Under the pieces are notes generated by a model. The model did not search any database. It was given only the letters and a program-made list of their open reading frames with translations, and was not told the origin of the DNA. Made by a program: the position numbers and the translations under genes. From IMG/VR virus record IMGVR_UViG_3300024270_000002: DNA of 64,000 nucleotides; one strand, 5' to 3'. The stretch is from a virus (lineage: Duplodnaviria; Caudoviricetes). This document shows, in pieces, positions 4,818 to 54,000 of this stretch (positions are counted from its first letter, which is position 1; every line of letters begins with the position of its first letter).

Positions 4818-4893
4818 ATAAAACATTAAAAATAACATCACTGGTATTGTATAATATATCAGTGATGTTTTAATTATGCGGAGGAGAAAAGTT

Positions 4894-5271
4894 ATGGCAC
4901 TTGATATTGATGAGATTATAGTTAATTATAATAAGGGAGTATATACTTATAAAGCAGATATTCCTAAAAAAGTAAAGCCGGATCATGTATTTGATGAGGA
5001 GCTTTCTGTTAAGCGTAACCGTGAGCTTGCGCAGGAGCATAATGACAACGTAGATAGACTGTGGCGAGATAAAAACAGAATTCAGCACGAGCTTGATGAG
5101 CGACTAACTTATGACGTAGTGGTTTATATGATGGAAAATTATGACCTTACCGAACGTCAGGCGAAAATTGTTGAGAATTTTGTTTATCAGCACTATCACT
5201 CTTATATGAGTGATTACTTTGGCTATATCGATACTTTTGCTGATCTTGCTAATGACCTTGTTAAGAGCTAA
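4894..5271 (+). CDS. hypothetical protein
   Basis: GGAGGAG RBS before ATG 4894. Confidence 0.7.
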   Translation: MALDIDEIIVNYNKGVYTYKADIPKKVKPDHVFDEELSVKRNRELAQEHNDNVDRLWRDKNRIQHELDERLTYDVVVYMMENYDLTERQAKIVENFVYQHYHSYMSDYFGYIDTFADLANDLVKS

Positions 5272-5282
5272 GGAGGAAACAA

Positions 5283-6308
5283 ATGACTGATTTTAAAGAG
5301 ATTCTTAAAACACCTGAGTACGAATTTTTGAAAACGAATCCGCACTTGGGCCATAATATTATTTTATTGGGCCTCGGTGGAAGTCATGCATACGGAACTA
5401 ATGTAGCAGGCTCAGACATTGATATCAGAGGAATTGCGCTTAACTCTAAAGAAGAGATTCTTGGCGCGGCTAATTTTGAACAGGTAGTTAATAATGAGAC
5501 TGACACTACAGTTTATTCATTGAGAAAGATTGTTTCTTTGCTTACTTCCTGTAATCCTAATACTATTGAGTTGTTGGGGCTGAAACAAGAACACTATTTG
5601 TATCTTTCATCTATCGGCCAGGAACTTCTCGATAATAAGAAGCTTTTCCTTTCAAAGAGGGCTAAGTATTCTTTCGGCGGATATGCCTTTAGCCAGCTGC
5701 GTAGACTTAATAATAAGGCAGCAAGAACAATTGCGCAGGCAGACAGAGAGCAGCATATCCTTAATAGTATTACGGCAGCTACTTATGTTTGGCCTGATAA
5801 ATATGGCTGTTTTAAGACCGGTGAGGGAGTAAAACTTTATCTTGATGACTCTGAGCAAAACGACATGGATAAAGAAATTTATATGGATATTTTCCTTACA
5901 CACTACCCGCTCAGAGATTATAAAGCAATGTGGGCAGACATGAAAAATATTATCTCTGACTATGATAAAATCGGGCATAGAAATCAGAACGCGATCGAGC
6001 GAGGAAAGCTTGGAAAGCATATGATGCATCTTGTAAGACTTTACTTGATGTGCCTTGATATTCTTGAAAAGGAAGAAATTAATACATATAGAGAAAATGA
6101 TATTCCTTTCTTGCTTGATATTCGTAATGGTAAATTTCTAGATAAGGATTCTCAGCCGCTTCCTGAATTTTATGATATGGTAAATGAGTATGAGAAACGC
6201 CTTGAGTATGCTGCTGAAAATACTTCTCTTCCAGAGAAGCCTGACTACGATGCAATTAATGAATTTCTTATGAGTGTTAATGAAAGGGTTGTTAAAGGTT
6301 TAGTATGA
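5283..6308 (+). CDS. Pol-beta superfamily nucleotidyltransferase (RlaP/YcgL-like, RNA-repair associated)
   Basis: GGSHAYGTNVAGSDIDIRG motif; NPN..ELL; KHMMHLVRL helix. Confidence 0.85.
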   Translation: MTDFKEILKTPEYEFLKTNPHLGHNIILLGLGGSHAYGTNVAGSDIDIRGIALNSKEEILGAANFEQVVNNETDTTVYSLRKIVSLLTSCNPNTIELLGLKQEHYLYLSSIGQELLDNKKLFLSKRAKYSFGGYAFSQLRRLNNKAARTIAQADREQHILNSITAATYVWPDKYGCFKTGEGVKLYLDDSEQNDMDKEIYMDIFLTHYPLRDYKAMWADMKNIISDYDKIGHRNQNAIERGKLGKHMMHLVRLYLMCLDILEKEEINTYRENDIPFLLDIRNGKFLDKDSQPLPEFYDMVNEYEKRLEYAAENTSLPEKPDYDAINEFLMSVNERVVKGLV

Positions 6309-6703
6309 AAAAGTTATTTGTGAGTGTGCCAATGAAAGGCCGCACTGAAGAAGAAATTAAGTATAGTATTGCAAAAATGCACCGTATTGCAGAAGCTTAC
6401 GAAGGTGAAGAGCTGGAGCTAATTGACTCTTGGGTGGATGAAGCTCCGCCTGCAGACTGTAATAGAAGTGCTTGGTATCTTGGAAAGTCTATTGAGAAAC
6501 TAGCTACGGCAGATGTGTTTATCGGAGTTAGTGATCTCAGCGGTTGGCCTGGCTGTAAAATTGAGTCTGACGTTGCCAGAGCTTATGATGTTAAAAGTTA
6601 TAGCGTGGATACTAAAATTGTTGTTGACTATGGTCCAATAGTACAAAGAGCTTTTCTGAATGCTACTTATAATACTATTAATAATGAAAGGAATAACGTA
6701 TAA
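6305..6703 (+). CDS. DUF4406 / nucleoside-deoxyribosyltransferase-like protein
   Basis: KLFVSVPMKG start; GCKIE..A motif. Confidence 0.55.
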   Translation: MKKLFVSVPMKGRTEEEIKYSIAKMHRIAEAYEGEELELIDSWVDEAPPADCNRSAWYLGKSIEKLATADVFIGVSDLSGWPGCKIESDVARAYDVKSYSVDTKIVVDYGPIVQRAFLNATYNTINNERNNV

Positions 6704-7332
6704 TGATTGAGTATAATAAGATTGATACTCTCTATAAGAGAGATATGGAGGGCTCCAAGAAGCTTCTTGAGGGCGAGTTTAGAAACCCTACAGTAGAGTT
6801 TTTGAAGGATAATATTTGGACATTTACCGAGAAGGTAGATGGAACAAATATCCGCGTATATTGGGATGGACATAAGGTACAGTTTGGCGGGCGTACCGAA
6901 AGAGCTCAGATTCCGTCTGACCTTGTGAATTATCTTAATTCTGTTTTCGGCACAAATGAGGCTGAGCAGATTTTTGAAGAGAAGTTCGGTGAGACTGAGG
7001 TAATTCTTTTTGGTGAGGGTTATGGTCCTAAGATTCAGAATGGCGGCCTTTATAGAAATGATGTAAGCTTTATCATGTTTGATGTGCTTATTGCCGGCAA
7101 CTACCAGCCCAGAGAGTCTGTTGAGGATATTGCAAAGGCCTTTGGTATTGATATCGTTCCTATTATCTTTGAGGGCACTATTCAGGAAGGTGTTGACTTT
7201 GTAAAGGGTCATCCTGACTCTACTATTGGAACTGCAAAAATGGAAGGTCTCGTAGGTCGCCCAAAGATAGAAATGAGAGATCGCTGCGGTAAGCGAGTTA
7301 TTGTAAAGATTAAGTGGGAAGATTTTAAGTAA
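6703..7332 (+). CDS. ATP-dependent RNA ligase (Rnl2-like adenylyltransferase domain)
   Basis: Motif I TEKVDGTN, FGEGYG, FDV, EGLVGRP, IVKIK. Confidence 0.85.
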   Translation: MIEYNKIDTLYKRDMEGSKKLLEGEFRNPTVEFLKDNIWTFTEKVDGTNIRVYWDGHKVQFGGRTERAQIPSDLVNYLNSVFGTNEAEQIFEEKFGETEVILFGEGYGPKIQNGGLYRNDVSFIMFDVLIAGNYQPRESVEDIAKAFGIDIVPIIFEGTIQEGVDFVKGHPDSTIGTAKMEGLVGRPKIEMRDRCGKRVIVKIKWEDFK

Positions 7333-7345
7333 ATTGTGCATAATT

Positions 7346-7375
7346 GAGCGTGGTAGAAATTACTGCGCTCTTTTT
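7346..7375 (+). terminator. intrinsic terminator
   Basis: GAGCGTGGTA/TACTGCGCTC hairpin followed by T-run. Confidence 0.7.
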
Positions 7376-8334: not shown

Positions 8335-8703
8335 ATGGAGGATTTAACCTTGATTTATACGTCTTATTTTTCATCGCGTAAGTACAAGACCGAAGATGGC
8401 GTGGCTATAGCAAGATGGTGTAGCTTTTGGTCTGGATCTAAGTTTTCTGCTCTTGCACCCAGTGAGGAGCTTCTCGAGTGGTGGAAAAGTCTTCCATTTA
8501 AAGATCGAGAAAAGGCAGAACCTAAGTGGCATTATGAAAAGCTATATAGAAAACAGACTTTGAGTAAACTTGATCCGAAAGAAGTCGCAAGGCTTCTTGA
8601 GGGTAAGACTCTTCTTTGTTTTGAAAAGTCTGAGGATTTCTGTCATCGACACATTGTTGCTAAGTGGCTACAAGAGGCCGGCTTTGAGTGTGAGGAACTA
8701 TAA
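8335..8703 (+). CDS. DUF488-family protein
   Basis: IYTSYF...LAPS...LLCFEK..FCHRHIVAKWL. Confidence 0.75.
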   Translation: MEDLTLIYTSYFSSRKYKTEDGVAIARWCSFWSGSKFSALAPSEELLEWWKSLPFKDREKAEPKWHYEKLYRKQTLSKLDPKEVARLLEGKTLLCFEKSEDFCHRHIVAKWLQEAGFECEEL

Positions 8704-8791: not shown

Positions 8792-9688
8792 ATGATTGGT
8801 TATATATACTTGACTACAAATAAATTAGATGGTATGCGTTATATAGGTAAACATCATGCAACAGCCTTTGAGCCAGAAAAGTACTTAGGTTCAAATAAGC
8901 ATTTACAGGCATCAATTAAAAAGCATGGTCGTCATAATTTTGACTGTAAATTATTACAAGAATGTTTTACAGATGGCGAATTAAATTGCGCTGAAAAAGC
9001 TTGGATTGATAAATACGATGCAGTAAATTCTCCACTATTCTACAATATCGCAGAAGGCGGTGAGGGTGGACGTGTGATGCTCAATCGAATAGCGATAAAT
9101 AATGGCTTAGTTGAAAAACGTATACTTAAAGACGAGCATATCCCAGATGGCTTTGCTTTAGGTGGTTTAAAACGTAAGGGTGGAGAAAAAGTAAGCGCCG
9201 CCAAAAAAGGCAAACCTAGCAAGAGTCGTGGAAAGCAGTGGTTTAATAACGGCATCGAGCAGACTATGGCTGATTGTTGCCCGGTAGGCTGGGTAGCAGG
9301 AAGATTGGATAATTTTTGTTCAAACAAAGAAAAAGAATTATATAATAATGGCATGGAACAAAAATTTTTTTCTGTCTCCGATGAAATACCTGAGGGTTGG
9401 ATAAAGGGAGCCCTTCAAGGGTTAGTTGTTTCTAATACAAAAGGCAGAGTTGCATACAATAATGGGTCTAAACATATCTATTTAAAAGTTGGTGAAGTTC
9501 CGCCCGAGGGCTTTGTACGTGGCTATTCCGCTGAACGCAAAAAAATAAATAGCAGCTCTGCTAGTCGATACAGTATAGGTAAGCATTGGTATAATAATGG
9601 AGTAGAACAACGCTATTTCACTGAGGGCGATACCATACCGGAGGGTTGGAAACCTGGCTGCTGCAAGACTAAAGTTAATAAAATCTAA
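8792..9688 (+). CDS. GIY-YIG (Seg-like) homing endonuclease with five NNG..P.G(W/F) repeats
   Basis: GYIYLTTN...YIGKH...YLGS...FYNIAEGG. Confidence 0.85.
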   Translation: MIGYIYLTTNKLDGMRYIGKHHATAFEPEKYLGSNKHLQASIKKHGRHNFDCKLLQECFTDGELNCAEKAWIDKYDAVNSPLFYNIAEGGEGGRVMLNRIAINNGLVEKRILKDEHIPDGFALGGLKRKGGEKVSAAKKGKPSKSRGKQWFNNGIEQTMADCCPVGWVAGRLDNFCSNKEKELYNNGMEQKFFSVSDEIPEGWIKGALQGLVVSNTKGRVAYNNGSKHIYLKVGEVPPEGFVRGYSAERKKINSSSASRYSIGKHWYNNGVEQRYFTEGDTIPEGWKPGCCKTKVNKI

Positions 9689-18773: not shown

Positions 18774-21700
18774 ATGGCATACAAAATCACACAACACCGT
18801 AGAGGTACAACTCAAGAGTGGCTTGAGCTTGACTTAGTGCCTTATGAAGGTGAGCTTGTTATAGAAGAATGCGAAGGTAATGTTCGTAAATGTAAGATTG
18901 GCGATGGCAAAAATCCTTTCTCTAAGCTTCCTTATATTACAGACGCGTTAGCAGAAGAGCTTGAATCCGAAATAGGCAATTTACGAGAGCAGACTAACAG
19001 TACCTTAAATACTGCTGTTGATATGCTTGAACAAAAAATAGCTAATTCTAGTACAGCTTTGTCTAATACTATTACAACCTTAGATTCAGATATTAATAAG
19101 AAAGTACAAGTATTAAGTTCTGATATTGAAGAACTTTCTGACAAACTTACTGATATTGACTCAATTGTCCATGACGGCATTAAATCAGATGTAGAAAGCT
19201 TAGATGCGAGATATAGCCAGACATTAACAGAAATAACTGAACAGCATGCAGCTGATGTTGCGACTTTAAGTGCTGACATCGAAACCAGAGCTAATGAATT
19301 AACAGAAGCTTTTGAAACGTCACTTGAGCAGACTGAGGCAAAGATCGAGGCTAATATCGCAGCAACCAAGACGAGCTTAGCAGAAGACTATGCTACCAAA
19401 ATAGAGGTAGCTGAGGAGCGTTTACAGGATGCTATTAATTCTTCTGAGCAGACGGTGCAACAGCATACAAAAGACCTGGGCGATATTCAAGAGTCTATTG
19501 TTGAGCTACAAACTGCTGTGGATAGTAAAAGCACTGAGATAGATGAGAAGGTATCTGCTAGTGAAGAACGTGTTACTATAAGCATTGAAGAAGTACAGGA
19601 AGCTATTAATAAAATTAATTTCACCCTAGAACAGATGCAGGCGAGCAAAGAAGAGATTCTTCCTGATTTTAATATTAATAGTCCAAGTGCCGAAGAAATA
19701 CTTCCTGTTGTAGTAGAGCAGCTCGAGAACCTACATTATAAAGTAAATATGCTGGAGCGTGGGGTATCTACTTCTACCACTGATATTCAAAATATTAATA
19801 TTGAATTAGGACGCTTGGCTACCTCTTTATCGAACGTGCTTGAACAGCACAAAACCAGCTCCGATAGTTTTTCAAAAGCTTTAAGCTCTTTAGACTCAAA
19901 ATTAAGTAAAGCAGACTCTGATATAACGGCGGCAATTGCAGCAAATAAGAAAGAGATACATGAAAACCTAGAAGCTTTAACTGCCAGTGATACTCTTTTA
20001 TATCAAGTTATTTACAAAATCAGAGATGATTTACTTAAGAAGATTGATGCGACGGATTCTTATTTACAAGCAGAGCTCAAGGAAGATATTGCTTTAATTA
20101 CTGAAAGCGTTAATGATTCTAAGCTTAAGCTTGACTCTAAACTGACAGCTGTTCAGTCTGGCTTAGCTGACGGTGTAAATGCTGTAAAAGTAGAGCTAAT
20201 TAAGAAACTTGATAATTTAGAAAAGCTTCACGATACTAGACTCAGCACTAATGAGACATCAATAAATGCCTTAAGTACTATTGTTACATCTAACCAGGCA
20301 GCGTTGTCTAGCGCTATTGAAACTGTCGCAGCTGACGTTGCAAATAATAAAGTTAATATAACAAATAATAGTGCAGAAATTGATCGAGTATATTCTGTGC
20401 TTGATGATAAAATTAATCTGGCTAATTCCAATGTAGATGCTTTAAACACAAAGGTTAACACACAAATTTCCGGTGTTGAAAGTCGTATGCAGACTTTACT
20501 TGCTGCAACAGACCAAATTGTACAGCAGCAGGCAGAGGCTATACATAATATTCAAGACAACATTACTGATCTAGACCAAGAAATAGATGATAGGATAGTT
20601 AATAAAATTTCGGATAGTGTAGCTGAAACTAATACAAACATCTTAGAAATAAGAGCTGCAATTAGTCAGATCAATCTTACACTAGAACTCTTAAAGAATG
20701 AAGTCAATAATAATTCTGGTGGGAATAATAACAACAGCTTATTGCTTCTTGCTGAACAACTTTCAGAATTACAGCATAAAATAACTTTGGTAGAAAGCGA
20801 TGCCTTGGCTACAAATGCCGAAATTCAATTGGTTAAGAATGAGCTTTCTCACCTAATCACTACTTTGACCAGTGACCTGGATGACCTTACTAAGACGACA
20901 GCTATTACAATTAGTTCATTAGATACAAAGCTTAGTAAAGCTGATGCTGATATTCTAGCTGCTTTGGCTACCCACACTGCTAACATAGCAGATGATTTAG
21001 CCGATCTGGCTGCCGACGATACACTTCTCTATCAAATTATCTATAGAATACGCGATGAGTTACTAAGTAAAGTAAGTGCTACTCAAGCTGTTCTACAGAC
21101 TAATATAGACGCCAGTGTAAATAATCTTAACCAAAACATTGTTGATACTAAAGCTGCTTTAGAAGAACAGCTTAGTCAAGCACAAGAAGACTTGACAGGG
21201 GTCCTTACGACGACTGAAAGCAGGCTGGACACAGAGCTTAGTCGAATTAACACTCTTTATAATGCAAAAACTTCCGCAAATAAAAAAGAGATAGATGATT
21301 TACATACCACAGTTGAGACTAACCAGGCAGAACTTTTAGCTGGCTTAGAGACTGTTACTTCCTATATTGCTGATAACAAAACCAGTATAGCTAATAGCAT
21401 GGCCGCGATCAACCAAGTAAATTCAACTCTCGAAGGCAAAGTTGCTCTTATAAATTCAAATATAGATATACTTGATTCTCAGCTTGAGGCACAAGCAAAC
21501 CGCATTGATAGTCTAATTGCTTTTGACTTAAATGATTTTACACTCAAAGAGGGTGAAATAACTAAAGAAGATTTCACAAGGCTGGCTCAAGAAGTTTCAG
21601 ATATTCGTAATGGCTATGACGGTACTACACATGAAAGTGCTCAAGCTGCAGTAAGAGCTATTGGTGATAATTTAGCAGAGCTAGAAAGCAAACTATCACA

Positions 21701-24700
21701 ATATGTTGAAACTCAAGCAGTTGGTGGCTTACGTTATGATGTTGCCGGTGAATACGGCTTAATGCAGCCTTATATGCTCTATTTAGAAACACCTGACGGA
21801 GAAGTTATTCAGGATTCTGGTGTACAGATAATTGGGGGAGCTGGCGGAGGACCCGGTGGTGGCGGAGCAAGTACGCTTAAAATTAACTATGATGAAAGAT
21901 CACCCCAGGAAATTAAAGTTACTCCTTCTAATGAAGTTAAAATATACTTTACGTTTTCTGGTACAGATGCCTCCGGCGACATGATTCGTACAGCTTCAGC
22001 AACTTGGAGAATTGATGGTGTTGTTGTAGAGCGTGGAACAATAAAAAGCGGTGAAAACTACTTTGATGCAACAAAGTATGTTAAAGATGGCACTATAAAG
22101 GTACATTTAACAGTTAATGATGATAACGGTAGCACTGCTACAAAATCTTGGGAAATACAACAGATTAACCTTAAAATAGAGTCAGAGTTTTCTGATAAGA
22201 AGACGTATCCTGTCGGCGAAAGCTTTACTTTCTACTTTAAACCAACTGGAGCTATTAATAAAGTAGCTAGATTTATCTTAGACGGTGACGAACTAGGTGT
22301 AGATATTTCTGTTCCAGATTTTCCAATAGTATTAGATGCGACTAAGTCTGGTGATATTGTATATTGCGATTTGCCCGCAATGAGCCACGGCTCACACCTA
22401 CTTGAAGTTTATTTAGAGGCTGATATTAACGGTACTACTGTTGAGTCTGACCACCTACTTAAAGATATAATCTGCTTTGATACTTCTGATAAAACAAAAC
22501 CGCCGGTAATAGGCACAGTTACTCAGAGCATCATGGGAGCAAAACAGTATTCTACAACTAATATTATCTATACTGTTTATAGTAACGCTACAGATACTCC
22601 TATGGTTGATATTATGGTTGACGGTAGTATTGTTTCTAACGATTATACTGTTATGCCTAATAAAGATTATGGTAATACTCCTACTGCGATATACCCGTAT
22701 GTTGCAACTGACCCAGGTCTGCATGAAGTTAAAATAGTTTGCGAAGGTATTGAGAAAGTAATTGATATCTTTGTTGAAGACCTTGGGCTTAACATTGTTC
22801 CTGTAAAGACTGGCCTGGCTTTTGACTTTAACCCTGCTGGTAAAAATAACGGTGATATATGGAGTGATAAGGGTGTTAGTCTGTCTGTTTCTGATAACTT
22901 TGACTGGACAAATGGCGGTTACTTACCAAATGATCCTAATGGACCTTGCTTCTGTGTTAAAGCCGGTTCAACTGCTACAATTAGCCATAAATTATTTGAA
23001 AAAGAAGCGAAAGAAACTGGAAAAGAATTTAAGCTGGTATTCAAAACTAAAAACGTAGCAAATCCCGATGCAGTATTTTTATCTTGCGTAGATAGTGAGA
23101 CCAGCTCGTCTCGTGTTGGCTTACAAATGGGAGTACATAATGCTACTATTTATGGTAAGAGCGGCAATCTTGAGTTAGCATACTCAGAAGAAGACGTTAT
23201 TGAATTTGAGTTTAATATTTCACAGTATAGTACCGCAGCAGATGCTCTTAACATGGTTATGGGTTATGAAGATGGCGTACCTAGCCGTCCCATGGTATAT
23301 GATGATTCTTATAGCTTTAAACAGGATTCCGCAAACGTTAAACCGATAACTATAGGTTCTCCAGACTGTGATGTATATATTTATAGACTTAAAGTTTATA
23401 ACATTTCACTGTCTACCGCTGATATTTTAAATAACTTTATTGCCGATGCAAGAACCGCTGAGGAAATGGTTGATAGATACACTAGAAACCAGATATATGA
23501 CGAAAATAGAAAGCTAACCCCAGAAGCTCTTGCTGCAAAGTGTCCTTGGCTGCGAGTTATTAAGGTATCTGCACCTAAGTTTACTTCTAGTAAAAAAGAT
23601 GATATTGCTAAAACAACTATTCAGCAGATTTATGGTCAGGGTAGACCTTCTGATAACTGGGTGGCTTACGATGCAGTTCATAGCGGTCAAGGAACAAGCT
23701 CAGATAACTACGGTGCCGCTGGAAGAAACTTAGATTTAAAGGTGCGTATAGTTAAGGACAAAAATGGAAATCCAATAAATACTAATCCCTATTTCCTATA
23801 CACAGATGAACAGGGTGAAGATAAAATTGTTCAAAAAGTTTCTTTAACAGACACATCGATCCCAGTAGATTACTTTAACATAAAAGTTAATATTGCATCT
23901 TCTAATAACTTAACCAATGCTATTATTGCTAAACGTTATAACGAATTTAACCCTTATAAGAGGCCATATGTTCGTGACGATGAATCTATAATTCCTTATT
24001 TAAAGGATACAATGGAATTCTATAACTGTGTGGTATTTATTCAAGAGACTGACCCTGATGTTACTACCCATAGAGAGTTTGCTGATAATGACTGGCACTT
24101 CTATGCAATAGGTAACATCGGTGACTCCAAGAAGACGGATAAAACCAGATTAACTGACCCCAGCGATAAGTACGAATGTTGTGTTGAAATTATGGACGTA
24201 GGGTTACCCCTATCTGGTTTCCCATGTGATACTATGATAGATGCCATGGGCTATACTATAGATGAAGAGACTAATGAACAAATTTATACTTGGGCGAAAG
24301 ATGAGCATTTAGGTATCTTATTTGAGCGAGAGTATTCATTAACAGCTGACCCAGAAGTTAACTTAAATAAGACATACTACATAGAAGTTGACGGTAAAAT
24401 GGTTAATGCGATGGAGTATGTTATTACGGAAGTAAGGGATTACATTTGGGCTAAAAATGAAAATCTTGCTTTATTATATGAGCTTATCGATGGTGAATAT
24501 ATAAAAACTGAAGACACCGAAGTTGATTTAGAAAAAGTTTACTATATAGAGGTCGAGGAAAAAGATGCTGACGGTAATGTAACTGGTACGGTATTTTCTG
24601 ATGCTATGGGTTATACTACTAAAGAAGTAAAAACCTATACATATGCGAAGAATGAAAATCTTGACCGACTCTATGAAGTAACTTACTTTAAAACTAATGA

Positions 24701-27700
24701 TACTGAAGTAAATTACCAGAAAACTTACTATGTAGATATTTTAGAGCATGATGACTTTAGTGAAGACTACACTTATGGCTGGCGTTATATCTCTGATGAT
24801 GAGGACTCTGAGGTAGTAAACACTTGTAAACAGGCTTGGATCGATTTTTATCGATTTGTAACCACTTCAACAGACGAAGAGTTTAAAGCACACTTTGGTG
24901 ATTACTTTGTAAAAGACTCCGCGTTATACTACTATTTATTCACGACTAGATATTGTATGGTAGATAACCGTGCAAAGAATACTTTCTGGCACTATGGTAA
25001 AACTGCAGACGGTACTCGTAAGTGGGACCTTTGCTGGGACTATGATAACGATACATCGCTTGGTTTAAATAACTACGGTAAACAGGTATATCGTTATGGT
25101 CTCGAAGACATTGACCATGATGCTACTGGAGAAGAAGTATTTAGACAGAGCGATAGTACATTCTTCTGTAGAGTAAGAGACATGTTCGGCCCCGAGCTAA
25201 GAAATATGTACCAGAGCTTAGAGTCCAGTAATGCTTGGAATGCTAATGCTTTTATAAATGAAAGCGACGCATGGCAAGAGCAGTTCCCAGAGGAATTATG
25301 GCGAATAGATATTGAGCGTAAATATATTAGAACTTATACAAGTTCTTTCGTTAACGGAGGATCCTGGAAACAAGGCTTGACAACTATGGCTAACGGTAGA
25401 ATGAAATACCATAGAAGACAGTGGGAACGAAATCAAGAGCAGTATATGGCTTCCAAATATCAAACAACTACTGCTTTGGGCGATGCGGCTCATGCTAACT
25501 TCCGAGTTGGCAGACCTTCTGTTGAAAATCTTGCTATCGCACCTAATTATCAGTTCACATTAACACCATATTCTCATATTTATTTAAATGTCCAGTATGG
25601 TGGAACCTCTCCGATTTCGGTTAGGGCTGTGCCTAATGTTCCAACAGTTGTTCCATATGCCGGCGCTTCTGCCGATATTATTAATGTAGGTAGCGCTGCA
25701 GCAATTAGTAACTTTGGTGATTTATCTGCATTTTATCCAAAAACTGCTAGTGTTCAAAATGCAACAAGAATTAAGAAATTAAAACTTGGAAATAACACCT
25801 CTGGTTACTCAAACACCTTATTCCAGAGCCTTGACACTGGAAATAATAACTTACTGGAAGAACTTGACTTAACAAATATAACAAGTTACGCAGGCTCGTT
25901 AGACCTTAAACAGCTAATAAACCTTAAAAAACTATACGCCTTTGGAACTGGTTTAACTAGTGTAAGTTTTGCTGATGGTGGTAAATTAAGTTACGTAGAG
26001 CTTCCTGCGGTAAACAACATAACACTTAAAAACTTAGCTTATTTAGAATACAGTAGCCTTAAATTAGCAAGCTATAGTAATGTTGAGGATCTTGTTGTTG
26101 ACGGTTGTTCTAAGATTAATAAAGTTGATTTGTTCAATAAATGCCCTAATCTTAAGAGAGTACGCTTAATTGATATTGACTTTGGTGAAATCTCTTATGA
26201 AGAGTTTACTACTAAGGTATTTAATCTCAGAGGAATATCTCCTACCGGAAGTGAACTGGTTAATGCAGTACTTACTGGCAAAGTACGTTTCAATGACCCT
26301 AAAATAACTGGTGAACAATATAACCAGATTAAGGAACGCTATCCCGATTTAGAAGTTTCTTATAATGAGCTTGAATCTACTCTAAAATTCATGGGAGTAG
26401 ATAATGAAACTGAGCTATGTCACCAGATAATTATAAATGGCCAAGATGGTGAGGCGCCAGCTAAAGAGCTTACAGATACCTTAATAAAAGCTCCTTCTGA
26501 AAACGGTGAATTTACTTATAGCTGGATTGGTTGGTCAACTGAGCCTAATAGCACTAAAGTTGATACAGATGCTCTTAAGAATATAGAAGGTGATCGCGTG
26601 CTCTATCCTGTGTTTAAAGCTATTACTAGAGCCTATACAGTTACCTTTATTAACCTGACTGAGCCAGAGGACAGCGAGCATTACTCTTGTGTAGTTAATA
26701 ATGTGCTTTACGGTACGACTGCAATATGTCCTTGGAGTAATGATGAGATTCGTAAACAGGACGCTGTTGACCCAACTGCTTATGTGTTTAACGGCTGGCG
26801 AAATGACAATAAGCCTATAGACGCAAACGTATTTATTACGGGTAACACTGAGTGCTATGCGGTGTTTGCATATGCTAGTGAGGCAGTGCTTTCGCTCGCC
26901 GATATTACCGGTGAAGGCCTTCTTAATAGATTCGGTAATCCTTTAAGTACAGGAGATAAAGGCTATACTACAAATGAAGCAGCTAACACTATGGAAATTA
27001 TTGCGTGTAAGCCATGTCTAAACGCATCAATAATTGTGCCTGATAAGCTGGAGGGTATACCGTACAAGGTAGTAGCGCTAGGAGGCTTTTATGCCGTTTC
27101 AAATCCAGCTACGTATAATCACAAAAAGTTAGCGCACATAAAAATAGCAGATACGATAACATCTCTATTAGATTATGCGTTTATGGGCTGTACTAACCTT
27201 AGCGATGTAGAGCTGTCTAACTCATTGAGAACTATCGGTACTCATTGTTTTGAAAATTGCTCTTCATTAATCGAATTAAGTCTACCTGATACTCTTATAA
27301 ACATAGCCAACGGCGCTTTTATTGGCTGTACCAAATTAACTGACATAAATACAAATGATAATGACTACGTTAAGATTATTGATAACTGCTTAGTAAATAA
27401 CGGAACTATTGTCTTTGGAAAATTTGTACCAGATGTTTGTATACCAGACGATAGCACAGTAACTAAAATTGCTGAAGAAAGCTTTGTTTCGAATAATTAC
27501 CTTAGCCCAGAATTGATTATTCCTGAAAATATTGTTGATGTAGGTAAAAATGCTTTTAAGTACTGTTCTAGTGTTACAAGTGTAGAAATTAAAAACAAAA
27601 ACGCTACACTTAATGGTATGTGCTTTGATCAGTGCTGTAATTTAAAGTCAGTCATACTACCCGAAGAATTATTAAAGATTCCAGTATATGCCTTTAGTAA

Positions 27701-27980
27701 AACAGCACTACAAAAAATAGACCTACCTAGTACTATTAATGATATAGGTGATAGTGCTTTTAGTGACATACATGGAACGATAGCTAATCCCTTTATAGTT
27801 ACTTTTGCGGGAGGCACAAATATTGATAATCTTACTATTCATGCTAAGGCTTTTAATAACTGTACAAACATCCAATTTAAGTTGCCTTGGACAGAAAAAG
27901 AATATAATGAGTCTAAATTTAATGGTAGTGATTGGGGTGCCGTCAATCCTACATTTATATTTAACGGAGGTAATAATTAA
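18774..27980 (+). CDS. giant tail/adhesin protein (Mtd-N, coiled coil, CotH-kinase-like region, LRR and BspA-type LRR)
   Basis: KIGDG..PFSKLPY; MVDNRAKNTFW...WDYDNDTSLG; AF.GC..L..I.LP repeats. Confidence 0.8.
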   Translation: MAYKITQHRRGTTQEWLELDLVPYEGELVIEECEGNVRKCKIGDGKNPFSKLPYITDALAEELESEIGNLREQTNSTLNTAVDMLEQKIANSSTALSNTITTLDSDINKKVQVLSSDIEELSDKLTDIDSIVHDGIKSDVESLDARYSQTLTEITEQHAADVATLSADIETRANELTEAFETSLEQTEAKIEANIAATKTSLAEDYATKIEVAEERLQDAINSSEQTVQQHTKDLGDIQESIVELQTAVDSKSTEIDEKVSASEERVTISIEEVQEAINKINFTLEQMQASKEEILPDFNINSPSAEEILPVVVEQLENLHYKVNMLERGVSTSTTDIQNINIELGRLATSLSNVLEQHKTSSDSFSKALSSLDSKLSKADSDITAAIAANKKEIHENLEALTASDTLLYQVIYKIRDDLLKKIDATDSYLQAELKEDIALITESVNDSKLKLDSKLTAVQSGLADGVNAVKVELIKKLDNLEKLHDTRLSTNETSINALSTIVTSNQAALSSAIETVAADVANNKVNITNNSAEIDRVYSVLDDKINLANSNVDALNTKVNTQISGVESRMQTLLAATDQIVQQQAEAIHNIQDNITDLDQEIDDRIVNKISDSVAETNTNILEIRAAISQINLTLELLKNEVNNNSGGNNNNSLLLLAEQLSELQHKITLVESDALATNAEIQLVKNELSHLITTLTSDLDDLTKTTAITISSLDTKLSKADADILAALATHTANIADDLADLAADDTLLYQIIYRIRDELLSKVSATQAVLQTNIDASVNNLNQNIVDTKAALEEQLSQAQEDLTGVLTTTESRLDTELSRINTLYNAKTSANKKEIDDLHTTVETNQAELLAGLETVTSYIADNKTSIANSMAAINQVNSTLEGKVALINSNIDILDSQLEAQANRIDSLIAFDLNDFTLKEGEITKEDFTRLAQEVSDIRNGYDGTTHESAQAAVRAIGDNLAELESKLSQYVETQAVGGLRYDVAGEYGLMQPYMLYLETPDGEVIQDSGVQIIGGAGGGPGGGGASTLKINYDERSPQEIKVTPSNEVKIYFTFSGTDASGDMIRTASATWRIDGVVVERGTIKSGENYFDATKYVKDGTIKVHLTVNDDNGSTATKSWEIQQINLKIESEFSDKKTYPVGESFTFYFKPTGAINKVARFILDGDELGVDISVPDFPIVLDATKSGDIVYCDLPAMSHGSHLLEVYLEADINGTTVESDHLLKDIICFDTSDKTKPPVIGTVTQSIMGAKQYSTTNIIYTVYSNATDTPMVDIMVDGSIVSNDYTVMPNKDYGNTPTAIYPYVATDPGLHEVKIVCEGIEKVIDIFVEDLGLNIVPVKTGLAFDFNPAGKNNGDIWSDKGVSLSVSDNFDWTNGGYLPNDPNGPCFCVKAGSTATISHKLFEKEAKETGKEFKLVFKTKNVANPDAVFLSCVDSETSSSRVGLQMGVHNATIYGKSGNLELAYSEEDVIEFEFNISQYSTAADALNMVMGYEDGVPSRPMVYDDSYSFKQDSANVKPITIGSPDCDVYIYRLKVYNISLSTADILNNFIADARTAEEMVDRYTRNQIYDENRKLTPEALAAKCPWLRVIKVSAPKFTSSKKDDIAKTTIQQIYGQGRPSDNWVAYDAVHSGQGTSSDNYGAAGRNLDLKVRIVKDKNGNPINTNPYFLYTDEQGEDKIVQKVSLTDTSIPVDYFNIKVNIASSNNLTNAIIAKRYNEFNPYKRPYVRDDESIIPYLKDTMEFYNCVVFIQETDPDVTTHREFADNDWHFYAIGNIGDSKKTDKTRLTDPSDKYECCVEIMDVGLPLSGFPCDTMIDAMGYTIDEETNEQIYTWAKDEHLGILFEREYSLTADPEVNLNKTYYIEVDGKMVNAMEYVITEVRDYIWAKNENLALLYELIDGEYIKTEDTEVDLEKVYYIEVEEKDADGNVTGTVFSDAMGYTTKEVKTYTYAKNENLDRLYEVTYFKTNDTEVNYQKTYYVDILEHDDFSEDYTYGWRYISDDEDSEVVNTCKQAWIDFYRFVTTSTDEEFKAHFGDYFVKDSALYYYLFTTRYCMVDNRAKNTFWHYGKTADGTRKWDLCWDYDNDTSLGLNNYGKQVYRYGLEDIDHDATGEEVFRQSDSTFFCRVRDMFGPELRNMYQSLESSNAWNANAFINESDAWQEQFPEELWRIDIERKYIRTYTSSFVNGGSWKQGLTTMANGRMKYHRRQWERNQEQYMASKYQTTTALGDAAHANFRVGRPSVENLAIAPNYQFTLTPYSHIYLNVQYGGTSPISVRAVPNVPTVVPYAGASADIINVGSAAAISNFGDLSAFYPKTASVQNATRIKKLKLGNNTSGYSNTLFQSLDTGNNNLLEELDLTNITSYAGSLDLKQLINLKKLYAFGTGLTSVSFADGGKLSYVELPAVNNITLKNLAYLEYSSLKLASYSNVEDLVVDGCSKINKVDLFNKCPNLKRVRLIDIDFGEISYEEFTTKVFNLRGISPTGSELVNAVLTGKVRFNDPKITGEQYNQIKERYPDLEVSYNELESTLKFMGVDNETELCHQIIINGQDGEAPAKELTDTLIKAPSENGEFTYSWIGWSTEPNSTKVDTDALKNIEGDRVLYPVFKAITRAYTVTFINLTEPEDSEHYSCVVNNVLYGTTAICPWSNDEIRKQDAVDPTAYVFNGWRNDNKPIDANVFITGNTECYAVFAYASEAVLSLADITGEGLLNRFGNPLSTGDKGYTTNEAANTMEIIACKPCLNASIIVPDKLEGIPYKVVALGGFYAVSNPATYNHKKLAHIKIADTITSLLDYAFMGCTNLSDVELSNSLRTIGTHCFENCSSLIELSLPDTLINIANGAFIGCTKLTDINTNDNDYVKIIDNCLVNNGTIVFGKFVPDVCIPDDSTVTKIAEESFVSNNYLSPELIIPENIVDVGKNAFKYCSSVTSVEIKNKNATLNGMCFDQCCNLKSVILPEELLKIPVYAFSKTALQKIDLPSTINDIGDSAFSDIHGTIANPFIVTFAGGTNIDNLTIHAKAFNNCTNIQFKLPWTEKEYNESKFNGSDWGAVNPTFIFNGGNN

Positions 27981-39468: not shown

Positions 39469-40398
39469 ATGGCAAAGTTAATTATTTTATGTGGGCTTCC
39501 TGGTTCCGGAAAAAGTTATTATGCTGAGCATTTCAAGCTTATAGATGATACTTTTTATGACGGTGCTACAGTTATTCATTCATCTGATAATATCAGAGAG
39601 GAGCTTTTTGGTGACGCAGGCTCTCAGGAAGATAATGGTAGAGTATTTGAGCTTATGCGTAAGAGAACTCAAGAAGACCTTAGAGCCGGCAAGACTGTAA
39701 TTTATGATGCTACTAACGTTACCAGAAAGGCTCGTAAGTCTGCTATTGCTTGTGCTCATCCTACTAATGATACTATAGAGTGTCATGTAGTATGGGCAGA
39801 TCCTGAGGAGTGTATCCGTCGTGACGGCCTACGAGACCGTAAAGTAGGTCCTGCAGTAATTGATAAGATGCTTCGTCGCTGGCAGAGTCCTTGGCTTGAT
39901 GAAGGCTTTGATAAAGTTGAAATTCATCTAAATCAGCACGATTTTGACCAGGTTAGATATGTTGCTAGCATGACTTCTGATATGCATATTCCTCATAATA
40001 ACCCTCATCACAAGCTTGGAGTATGGGAACATTGTATGCAGGCTTATAATAATATTGTAGTAAAGCATAAGGATACTAAGCATATTTTTAATTCATTGGC
40101 TGCTGCAGCTTTTTGGCATGATATTGGAAAGCCTTATACTAAGTTTTTCAAGCATGGTGAGGATATTGCTCACTATTATGACCATCACTGCGTTGGAGGC
40201 TACCTAGCTTATGGCTTGTTTTTGAATCCTGATCATCACTTACTGCGTGATGTGGAGATGGACAATATTTGCTTTATTAGCTGGATGATAGCTAACCATA
40301 TGGAACCTTTCTTTGATTCTAATTACTATAGAGACCTTAATCCCAAGTGGAAGTGGTATATCGACGCTATCCACGAGGCAGATCTTGCTGCGCATTAA
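39469..40398 (+). CDS. polynucleotide kinase (P-loop) fused to HD domain; RNA end-healing enzyme
   Basis: CGLPGSGKS, SSDNIR, YDATN; NPHH...H...WHDIGKP...H...NHM...HEAD. Confidence 0.88.
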   Translation: MAKLIILCGLPGSGKSYYAEHFKLIDDTFYDGATVIHSSDNIREELFGDAGSQEDNGRVFELMRKRTQEDLRAGKTVIYDATNVTRKARKSAIACAHPTNDTIECHVVWADPEECIRRDGLRDRKVGPAVIDKMLRRWQSPWLDEGFDKVEIHLNQHDFDQVRYVASMTSDMHIPHNNPHHKLGVWEHCMQAYNNIVVKHKDTKHIFNSLAAAAFWHDIGKPYTKFFKHGEDIAHYYDHHCVGGYLAYGLFLNPDHHLLRDVEMDNICFISWMIANHMEPFFDSNYYRDLNPKWKWYIDAIHEADLAAH

Positions 40399-53131: not shown

Positions 53132-53276
53132 CGGGATGTGGCTCAGTTTGGCTAGAGCACGTGATTTGGTCGGAATGATGTTAAGTAGCATACATTATAA
53201 ATGAAGTGTGGGTTCAAATCCCATTTTCGGCACCAGGATCACGGGGTCGCAGGTTCGAATCCTGTCATCCCGACCA
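53132..53276 (+). tRNA. tRNA-Pro(UGG) interrupted by nested tRNA-like element 53169-53235
   Basis: CGGGATG/CATCCCG; TTTG|GGA loop restored on removing insert. Confidence 0.87.
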
Positions 53277-53388: not shown

Positions 53389-54000
53389 ATGGCAGAGTTT
53401 TGTAAAGAGTGCTTTTTAACAAAGATTGATTCTTCAGTTAATCCTGATAATCTTGTTTTAAGTACAGAAGCAACTCTTTGTGAAGGCTGCGGTGAAAATA
53501 AGCCTGTTGTATTAGAAGTAGATAATACACCTAAGCTTACTATCGCTGAATGTCAGGTAGAAACTCAGAAGCATATTGAGGCTGTTAGAAAGTATATCAG
53601 ATTTATGATTGATAAGATTGATATGCGCGGCGTAAAGCATGATGCTTCTAAGCTTGAGAGTCCTGAAGTAGAAGTATTTGCAGAGTATACACCAAAATTG
53701 AATAATACAACATTCGGTAGTGAAGAGTACTATCAGAATTTAGATCATATGAAGTCTGCTTTAGATCATCATTATGCATCTAATCGCCACCATCCGGAGC
53801 ATTTTGTTAATGGAATTAATGATATGACATTAATTGATATTTTAGAAATGTTTTGCGACTGGAAGGCAAGCACTCTTAGACATAATGATGGAAATCTGCT
53901 GAAGAGCATTGAAACAAATGCTGAGCGCTTTAACATGGAAGGTCAGCTTAAACAGATTTTAATCAATACTGCTAGAATGATTGACGAACATGAAGATTAA
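53389..54000 (+). CDS. DUF5662-family HD-like protein with N-terminal Zn finger
   Basis: HDASKL...HHY..NRHHPEH...EMFCDW. Confidence 0.75.
   Translation: MAEFCKECFLTKIDSSVNPDNLVLSTEATLCEGCGENKPVVLEVDNTPKLTIAECQVETQKHIEAVRKYIRFMIDKIDMRGVKHDASKLESPEVEVFAEYTPKLNNTTFGSEEYYQNLDHMKSALDHHYASNRHHPEHFVNGINDMTLIDILEMFCDWKASTLRHNDGNLLKSIETNAERFNMEGQLKQILINTARMIDEHED

Follow-up and report, generated by a model that had tools for sequence, protein, structure and literature searches.

A lineage-specific RlaP–RNA ligase locus in a large uncultured phage and its possible link to tRNAs split by tRNA-shaped inserts

The window analysed here is a 64,000-nt stretch of a large uncultured phage (Caudoviricetes; IMG/VR record IMGVR_UViG_3300024270_000002), for which G001, a 220 kb record that is 96% complete and encodes a 91% identical ligase, serves as the whole-genome proxy. 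Between positions 5283 and 7332, the plus strand of the window encodes three proteins: an RlaP-family Pol-beta nucleotidyltransferase (5283-6308), a 132-aa protein with a fold resembling NDT and DNPH1 (6305-6703), and a minimal ATP-dependent RNA ligase of 209 aa (6703-7332). All three open reading frames (ORFs) are real, as the original prediction from the sequence had claimed. The RlaP and 132-aa genes overlap in ATGA, and the 132-aa and ligase genes share 1 nt (TAATG), overlaps that suggest coupled translation. The same window carries two tRNA genes interrupted by tRNA-shaped inserts (nested tRNAs), and the ligase had been proposed to join their exons.

The ligase matches the Pfam family PF09414 (RNA_ligase; 1.9e-19, 70.9 bits against a cut-off of 27) and phrog_548. 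Its motifs I, III, IIIa, IV, and V recur in 32 diverse homologues (36-61% identity), in which K44 of motif I, which aligns with motif I of T4 Rnl2, and D127 are invariant, and E105, E181-G182, K202, and K204 are conserved in at least 90%. The AlphaFold2 (AF2) model (pLDDT 95.7) is most similar to the nucleotidyltransferase domain of T4 Rnl2 (1s68, E 3.9e-10), followed in order by Naegleria Rnl5, a trypanosome editing ligase, and archaeal Rnl3. The enzyme would be expected to join 3'-OH and 5'-phosphate RNA ends via lysyl-AMP on K44. It consists of the catalytic domain only, with motif I at residue 44 and the chain ending 5 residues past motif V; neither an OB module (PHA02142) nor a C-terminal module nor a PF09511 (Rnl1) match was found in it. 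The protein shares the nucleotidyltransferase fold and all catalytic motifs with T4 Rnl2 and the Rnl5 enzymes (NgrRnl, DraRnl), its best structural matches, but lacks the C-terminal domain of the former and the N-terminal OB module of the latter, and its scores fall far short of the NCBIfam equivalog cut-offs of both families (26.1 vs 197 bits for Rnl2, TIGR02307; 24.9 vs 151 bits for Rnl5, TIGR02306).

Such bare ligases form a clade that counts 663 representatives of clusters at 50% identity (E≤1e-30), with few exceptions 200-225 aa long. Fusions of RlaP and ligase were considered among the longer homologues; those that we scanned carry LAGLIDADG/intein domains or unannotated N-terminal extensions instead. 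LAGLIDADG endonuclease domains interrupt the homologues L040 1483-3555 (in G006), P0248, P0254, and P0280, and intein splicing domains were also detected in three of these four.

The first gene of the trio belongs to the RlaP family by its matches to PF10127 (3.7e-20, 73.1 bits against a cut-off of 23) and, over residues 22-339, to phrog_388 (3.6e-58). Residues ~31-49 carry the Pol-beta motif GGSHAYG...GSDIDIRG (GS...DxD), which aligns with the same motif of a second RlaP-like protein; a search against PDB sequences gave no useful match. The closest matches of all come from human faecal samples, and the nearest named relative of the phage, judged by RlaP protein identity, infects Clostridioides. 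The family owes its name to its linkage to RNA ligases, and the addition of 1-2 nucleoside monophosphates to an RNA 3'-OH is known solely for Pseudomonas enzymes, which prefer the 5' half of a cleaved-tRNA mimic (PMC12776372). RlaP has been proposed to restore, before ligation, a nucleotide lost to nucleases such as RloC (PMC12776372). By homology, the protein of the window would likewise add 1-2 nucleotides to the 3'-OH of broken RNA.

The 132-aa protein had been labelled DUF4406-like. No Pfam, PHROG, or NCBIfam profile matches it even at E≤10, so that the label stands as a resemblance in fold and motif, and not as a family assignment; the profile of its own family found nothing among PDB sequences. 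Its AF2 model (pLDDT 89) retrieves 7m5h, DNPH1, and NDT chains in Foldseek with a probability of ~1, but with E-values of 3e-3 to 3e-2 and a TM-score of ~0.5. The family comprises more than 1500 proteins without a Pfam domain. A "PMKG" N-terminal turn and the glutamate of a "GC.IE" motif (E87), invariant in the family, fit the NDT/DNPH1 fold, and E87 may be the counterpart of the NDT nucleophile. One phage homologue is annotated as a nucleoside 2-deoxyribosyltransferase, and in Faecalibacterium phage FP_oengus a homologue belongs to a DNA-replication module, where it lies between SSAP and helicase genes, beside a DNA polymerase gene. In the related loci L003-L008, whose RlaP and ligase are ~90% identical to those of the window, RlaP is followed after a 13-nt spacer by the ligase, without the middle gene, and in L009 the slot is filled by two unrelated small ORFs. 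The middle gene therefore stands outside the conserved pair; it is an unrelated accessory gene in a variable slot and probably encodes a nucleotide N-glycosidase.

Upstream of RlaP lies a gene for an uncharacterised 131-aa protein (4876-5271, plus strand), which may in fact begin at the ATG of residue 7. The protein has no Pfam or PHROG match, and from residue 7 onward it found no usable match in the protein Atlas. By tblastn, it sits directly upstream of RlaP in L003-L009 with 48-94% identity; judged by gene order, what is conserved is thus the series of 131-aa gene, RlaP gene, and ligase gene, in which the slot between RlaP and the ligase varies. Promoter-like hexamers (TTAAAA-18-TATAAT), predicted by a consensus scan alone, overlap a 14-bp hairpin at 4826-4869 (plus strand), the RlaP gene is preceded by a strong ribosome-binding site (AGGAGG), and a terminator-like hairpin followed by a T-run was detected by sequence scan at 7346-7370 (plus strand), 14 nt past the ligase stop codon. 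This bracketing suggests that the four genes from 4876 to 7332 form one transcription unit, which probably starts at the 4826-4869 site. A megablast search of the locus against phage genomes gave no match. Downstream of a lysozyme-like gene, the plus strand continues with a DUF488-N3a protein (8335-8703), which in some relatives is far less conserved and ~4 kb further off, and with a GIY-YIG/SegE-like homing endonuclease (8792-9688). The window, with a G+C content of 34-44% in 2-kb windows, also holds one ORF of 3068 aa (18774-27980, plus strand).

We compared the gene surroundings of the ligase with those of its 80 nearest homologues in IMG/VR (57-91% identity). An RlaP gene immediately precedes the ligase only in the ~90%-identical clade, so that the tight RlaP–ligase "operon" is a recent local arrangement. 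Several results speak against a fixed pairing: at the same 80 loci RlaP was found 4.2 kb upstream in two and undetected within 6 kb in ~70, and in Lak-C1 it was not found within 8 kb of the ligase. No ligase adjoins the nearest RlaP relatives, which come from a C. difficile phage and from a faecal contig. The earlier description of the locus as an RNA-repair operon accordingly holds for RlaP and the ligase, whose association has been described (PMC7824862, PMC12776372), and fails for the middle gene, missing in the ~90%-identical relatives. We consider it quite probable that the locus is a lineage-specific arrangement of this known phage RNA-repair pair.

The basic reading of the system is a familiar type of RNA repair by healing, filling, and sealing, as follows from the RlaP and ligase literature, from a kinase elsewhere in the window, and from the ligase content of G001; the enzyme activities and tRNA as the substrate are what we infer. 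The kinase, 32 kb from the ligase (39469-40398, plus strand), had been recognised as a polynucleotide kinase fused to an HD phosphohydrolase (Pnk-HD). The sequence bears this out, with a kinase domain (AAA_33 3.7e-21, phrog_505) and an HD motif in the C-terminal half. The protein is 43% identical over its full length, with the HD motif conserved, to a Pnk-HD that adjoins the ligase in phage G044, and Pnk-HD homologues adjoin ligase and an RlaP-like gene in other phages. Pnk-HD would first turn cyclic-phosphate and 5'-OH ends, as made by host anticodon nucleases, into ligatable ends. G001 encodes this PF09414 ligase and an ordinary ATP-dependent DNA ligase, and neither Rnl1 (PF09511) nor RtcB. 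Two further assignments had been made: a DUF5662 protein at 53389, which its profile match (2.9e-37) upholds, and a "cREC" ORF at 63970, of which just 31 nt lie inside the window.

The closest described parallel is RlaP-associated RNA repair in bacteria and large phages (Burroughs & Aravind 2016, as cited in PMC7824862 and PMC12776372; Iyer et al. 2021, PMC7824862; Carruthers et al. 2025 preprint, PMC12776372). There, as here, a large phage rich in tRNA genes encodes a PF10127 protein next to an RNA ligase that requires a 5'-phosphate, and a polynucleotide kinase/phosphatase is encoded at another place in the genome; in jumbo phages, RlaP and RNA ligases have matching distributions, and the ATP-dependent ligases come with kinases and phosphatases (PMC7824862). 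The present locus differs in that its ligase is a bare 209-aa catalytic domain, an NDT-like gene interrupts the pair, the adjacency is limited to one shallow clade, and the genome also has nested tRNAs. The repair of phage T4, in which Pnkp and Rnl1 counter PrrC, shares the heal-then-seal logic of a kinase/phosphatase and an ATP-dependent ligase as well as phage-borne tRNAs, and T4 also encodes Rnl2 and the RlaP homologue NrdC.11 (PMC12776372). Unlike in T4, however, no Rnl1 was found for the present phage (PF09511 is absent from G001), its phosphatase is of the HD and not the HAD type, and its ligase resembles the Rnl2 catalytic domain without the C-terminal domain.

ARAGORN finds 31 tRNAs in the window, two of which are nested according to the sequence, aragorn -i, and Rfam tRNA matches. 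tRNA-Leu(UAA) (43576-43764, plus strand) carries a 102-nt tRNA-shaped insert between positions 34 and 35, matched by the Rfam tRNA model, and tRNA-Pro(UGG) (53132-53276, plus strand) a 67-nt mini-tRNA inside the anticodon, after position 35. Both inserts have a 7-bp acceptor stem and a discriminator base and end in CCA, followed directly by the rest of the anticodon loop. These are the sole genes of the window for the anticodons UAA and UGG, and TTA and CCA each account for 28% of their own codon family. The exons of each pair sum to a complete 7-nt loop, with expected junctions ...GGGACUU/AAAAUCCCG for Leu (CUU/AAAA) and ...GAUUUG/GGAUCACG for Pro (UUUG/GGA), and no nucleotide addition is needed. 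RlaP as the supplier of a missing anticodon nucleotide was rejected for this reason, which leaves this enzyme without an obvious job in splicing. The two split tRNAs are candidate substrates of the ligase. In G001, tRNA-Pro(UGG) is uninterrupted (L014 7855-7930), and tRNA-Leu is nested with an insert of 67 nt instead of 102 nt; the inserts thus come and go within the ligase-bearing lineage.

Other unusual RNA genes were seen on the plus strand. A tRNA-like gene with a Tyr-type GUA loop (47933-48095; Rfam 34 bits across the whole tRNA model) has an insertion of ~84 nt that follows the anticodon stem and so lies outside the loop, ends in CCA, and is kept in G001 (L014 11760-11922). ARAGORN reports a tRNA with a four-base anticodon (aaag) at 45448-45522 (Rfam 46 bits), and the tRNA island contains a full-length GOLLD RNA at 57469-57989 (Rfam RF02032, 160 bits, E 5e-43).

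tRNAs of this kind have been noted before in Lak megaphages (Devoto et al. 2019), whose description mentions "enigmatic" tRNA introns and neither a ligase nor RNA repair (PMC6784885). The Lak genomes resemble the present phage in having tRNAs broken by a tRNA-like insert together with minimal ligase and RlaP matches: a homologue of the minimal ligase is present in 15 of 15 of them (32-33% identity), and each of them also matches RlaP. They are unlike it in the spacing of the two genes, as the Lak-C1 result above shows.

Since co-occurrence with nested tRNAs had been put forward as a check of the proposed exon joining, we took a census of IMG/VR with two queries that are independent of the ligase: a pattern in which CCA precedes the 3' half of a Leu(UAA) anticodon loop and the T arm of a class II tRNA, and the motif GTAGGGGCAGYAYCTAC drawn from several inserts. 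The census revealed nested tRNAs in ~30 other viral contigs, with diverse exons and CCA-ending minihelix inserts of 47-108 nt. The motif query led to nested tRNAs at 4 of 79 loci, the rest being mostly a free-standing tRNA-like element or chance coding matches. The 17-mer GTAGGGGCAGTACCTAC is the T arm of this widespread element, which has an unusual GGCAGUA loop ("...cccatcgaccgagcaagcgaacgggcccgactgttaatcgg...gatggga") and occurs in many unrelated viral contigs (L185-L262, e.g. L185, L187, L215, L221), often beside ordinary tRNAs; the same T arm is found in several nested inserts.

Whole nested-tRNA records were then searched for ligase families. Weak PF09414 matches separate into ORFs of 480-495 aa, which are OB-fused ligases with intact motifs, and ORFs of ~670 aa, which are NAD-dependent DNA ligases. 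Among the nested-tRNA records with a completeness of at least 90%, 13 of 14 encode an ATP-dependent RNA ligase, in three architectures: the minimal ligase (G001, G048, G049, G050), Rnl1 (G007, G017), and an OB-fused ligase (confirmed in G002, G009, G013, G019, G044, and G045 and probable in G046, where the 408-aa protein was left unscanned). RtcB was found in none of the 20 nested-tRNA records searched for it. Apart from G043, all nested-tRNA records without a ligase match are at most 64% complete. As controls, we used phage contigs that span at least 60 kb and have a tRNA-Leu(UAA) without interruption, 10 of them at least 90% complete; an RNA ligase occurs in 3 of these 10, and three of the ligase-less ones carry 14-29 tRNAs. 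A one-sided Fisher test gives p=0.0023 for the difference, 0.011 when only controls that reach 100 kb are used, and 0.015 with obvious lineages collapsed, with counts that are not corrected for phylogeny and controls that are few and unmatched for habitat or ancestry. The proposal thus withstands the refuting condition named in the original prediction, nested tRNAs being common in genomes without any ligase: among the 14 complete records, G043 is the one exception. In five further phage contigs, which were found via ligase homology, a nested tRNA lies within 6 kb of a minimal ligase. What the census supports is some ATP-dependent RNA ligase, and not this operon or RlaP.

How the exons might be joined can be outlined as follows. 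RNase P would cut the 5' side of the tRNA-shaped insert, a nuclease would cut after the insert's CCA on the 3' side, and a phage ATP-dependent RNA ligase, here the 209-aa enzyme at 6703-7332, would seal the resulting 3'-OH and 5'-phosphate exon ends. The original prediction had argued that such ends suit an ATP-dependent ligase, in agreement with established enzymology, and since the proposed cutters leave 3'-OH and 5'-phosphate, no healing step would be needed. As the only RNA ligase found in G001, the PF09414 enzyme would be the only phage enzyme able to rejoin the nested exons. The scheme resembles eukaryotic and archaeal splicing (Sen endonuclease with Trl1 or RtcB) in that protein cuts flanking an anticodon-loop intron would be followed by ligation, but differs from it in that the proposed cutters are tRNA end-maturation enzymes; no splicing endonuclease turned up, and none was sought. 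Given the co-occurrence across phages, which lends moderate statistical support, it is nearly an even call whether the ligase also rejoins the exons of the nested tRNA-Leu and tRNA-Pro. The wider proposal that large phages run a protein-only tRNA splicing pathway, which would be new for bacteria and their viruses, we advance tentatively and regard as somewhat more doubtful than not.

A number of observations, together with the sampling limits of the control comparison given above, weigh against splicing by the ligase. Joined-exon (intron-less) Leu and Pro junctions were found in none of 241 million metagenome contigs; as assemblies are a poor proxy for RNA, this excludes common intron-less alleles and adds no evidence for splicing. 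The complete 163-kb genome G043 carries a nested tRNA-Leu and yielded no PF09414, Rnl1, or RtcB match at permissive thresholds, nor a homologue of its relatives' ligase. Its sealing enzyme may be an unrecognised one; a phage ligase is thus either not strictly required or not always recognisable. RlaP was matched at E≤0.001 in 8 of 19 nested-Leu records and cleared the family cut-off in 4, and the untemplated nucleotide addition expected of it would harm precise splicing. In control phages that do have an RNA ligase, the tRNA islands hold no CCA-ending nested tRNA, as is the case for the control islands in general; RNA ligases are therefore not dedicated to splicing. As for the exact cut past the CCA of the insert, RNase Z is normally blocked by CCA, and cutting after CCA is not known outside Thermotoga. 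Rnl2 and Rnl5 prefer nicks in duplex RNA over breaks in loops, and the T4 Rnl2 catalytic domain alone is reportedly defective in one ligation step, according to work from the Shuman laboratory.

G043 itself contains an overlapping trio (L306 59-2394) of an RlaP-like gene (269 aa), a 206-aa gene, and a Pnk-HD gene. The 206-aa ORF was considered as a divergent ligase and rejected, as it has no KxDG motif and no family match.

These points feed into an account in which the pair serves repair only and counters host anticodon nucleases by the logic of T4 Pnkp and Rnl1. The nested tRNAs would then be processed by a host ligase or another enzyme, or be non-functional, and the co-occurrence would reflect a shared niche in which tRNA-rich large gut and rumen phages hold both repair kits and mobile inserts. 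The activity expected of RlaP suits damage repair and not precise splicing, Pnk-HD is present though unnecessary for ends of the RNase P/Z type, G043 retains a nested tRNA although no ligase was detected in it, other phages have a ligase but no nested tRNA, and many of the nested-tRNA contigs derive from a few related sample sets. Harder to reconcile with repair alone are the recurrence of three non-homologous ligase architectures at 13/14 vs 3/10, with RtcB never found, and the size of the inserts, which at 47-108 nt are too small for known self-splicing introns. The inserts moreover occupy the phage's only Leu(UAA) or Pro gene, and the 241 million contigs yielded no allele in which exactly these exons are joined without an intron. 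We regard repair alone as a serious contender that nevertheless falls somewhat short of an even chance.

The ligase might instead act on substrates other than tRNA, such as nicked RNA, DNA–RNA hybrids, or mRNA and rRNA breaks, or adenylylate RNA 5' ends. Its closest folds, T4 Rnl2, NgrRnl, and REL1, seal duplex nicks, and the physiological substrates of Rnl2 and Rnl5 are described as unknown (PMC5397189). Such a role is unlikely in view of the genomic company that the enzyme keeps: at 27 of the 80 homologous loci, tRNA genes are found no more than 6 kb from the ligase, its homologues are concentrated in tRNA-rich phages (Lak, Streptomyces BE-type, Campylobacter), and its partner RlaP has a preference for cleaved-tRNA mimics. 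A dedicated splicing operon as implied by the original prediction, whose three or four genes evolved as a unit, with RlaP and the middle protein preparing the exon ends, could appeal to the overlapping genes and their suggested coupled translation, the apparent single transcription unit, and the two nested tRNAs of the same genome. The middle gene, however, is missing in ~90%-identical relatives whose tRNA-Leu is still nested, RlaP is lacking in about half of the phages with nested tRNAs, the junctions need no added nucleotide, and 36 kb separate the unit from the tRNA island. A dedicated operon is therefore very improbable, gene order in relatives having largely refuted it already.

By itself, the locus adds another RNA-repair module to those known from phages, a matter of routine annotation, and its interest comes from the split tRNAs of the same genome. 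Ever since they were described in Lak megaphages, tRNA-shaped inserts have lacked an explanation, and the census provides a first quantitative hint that the tRNAs carrying them need a phage ATP-dependent RNA ligase, and in no case RtcB. Ligase-dependent splicing has now become cheap to test, with one enzyme of ~210 aa and one pre-tRNA, and the widespread uncharacterised ligases that consist of a bare catalytic domain emerge as possible tRNA-joining enzymes and molecular tools. If ligation of the nested exons proves true, the ligase gene would be what lets tRNA-shaped inserts spread into the single-copy tRNA genes of these phages.

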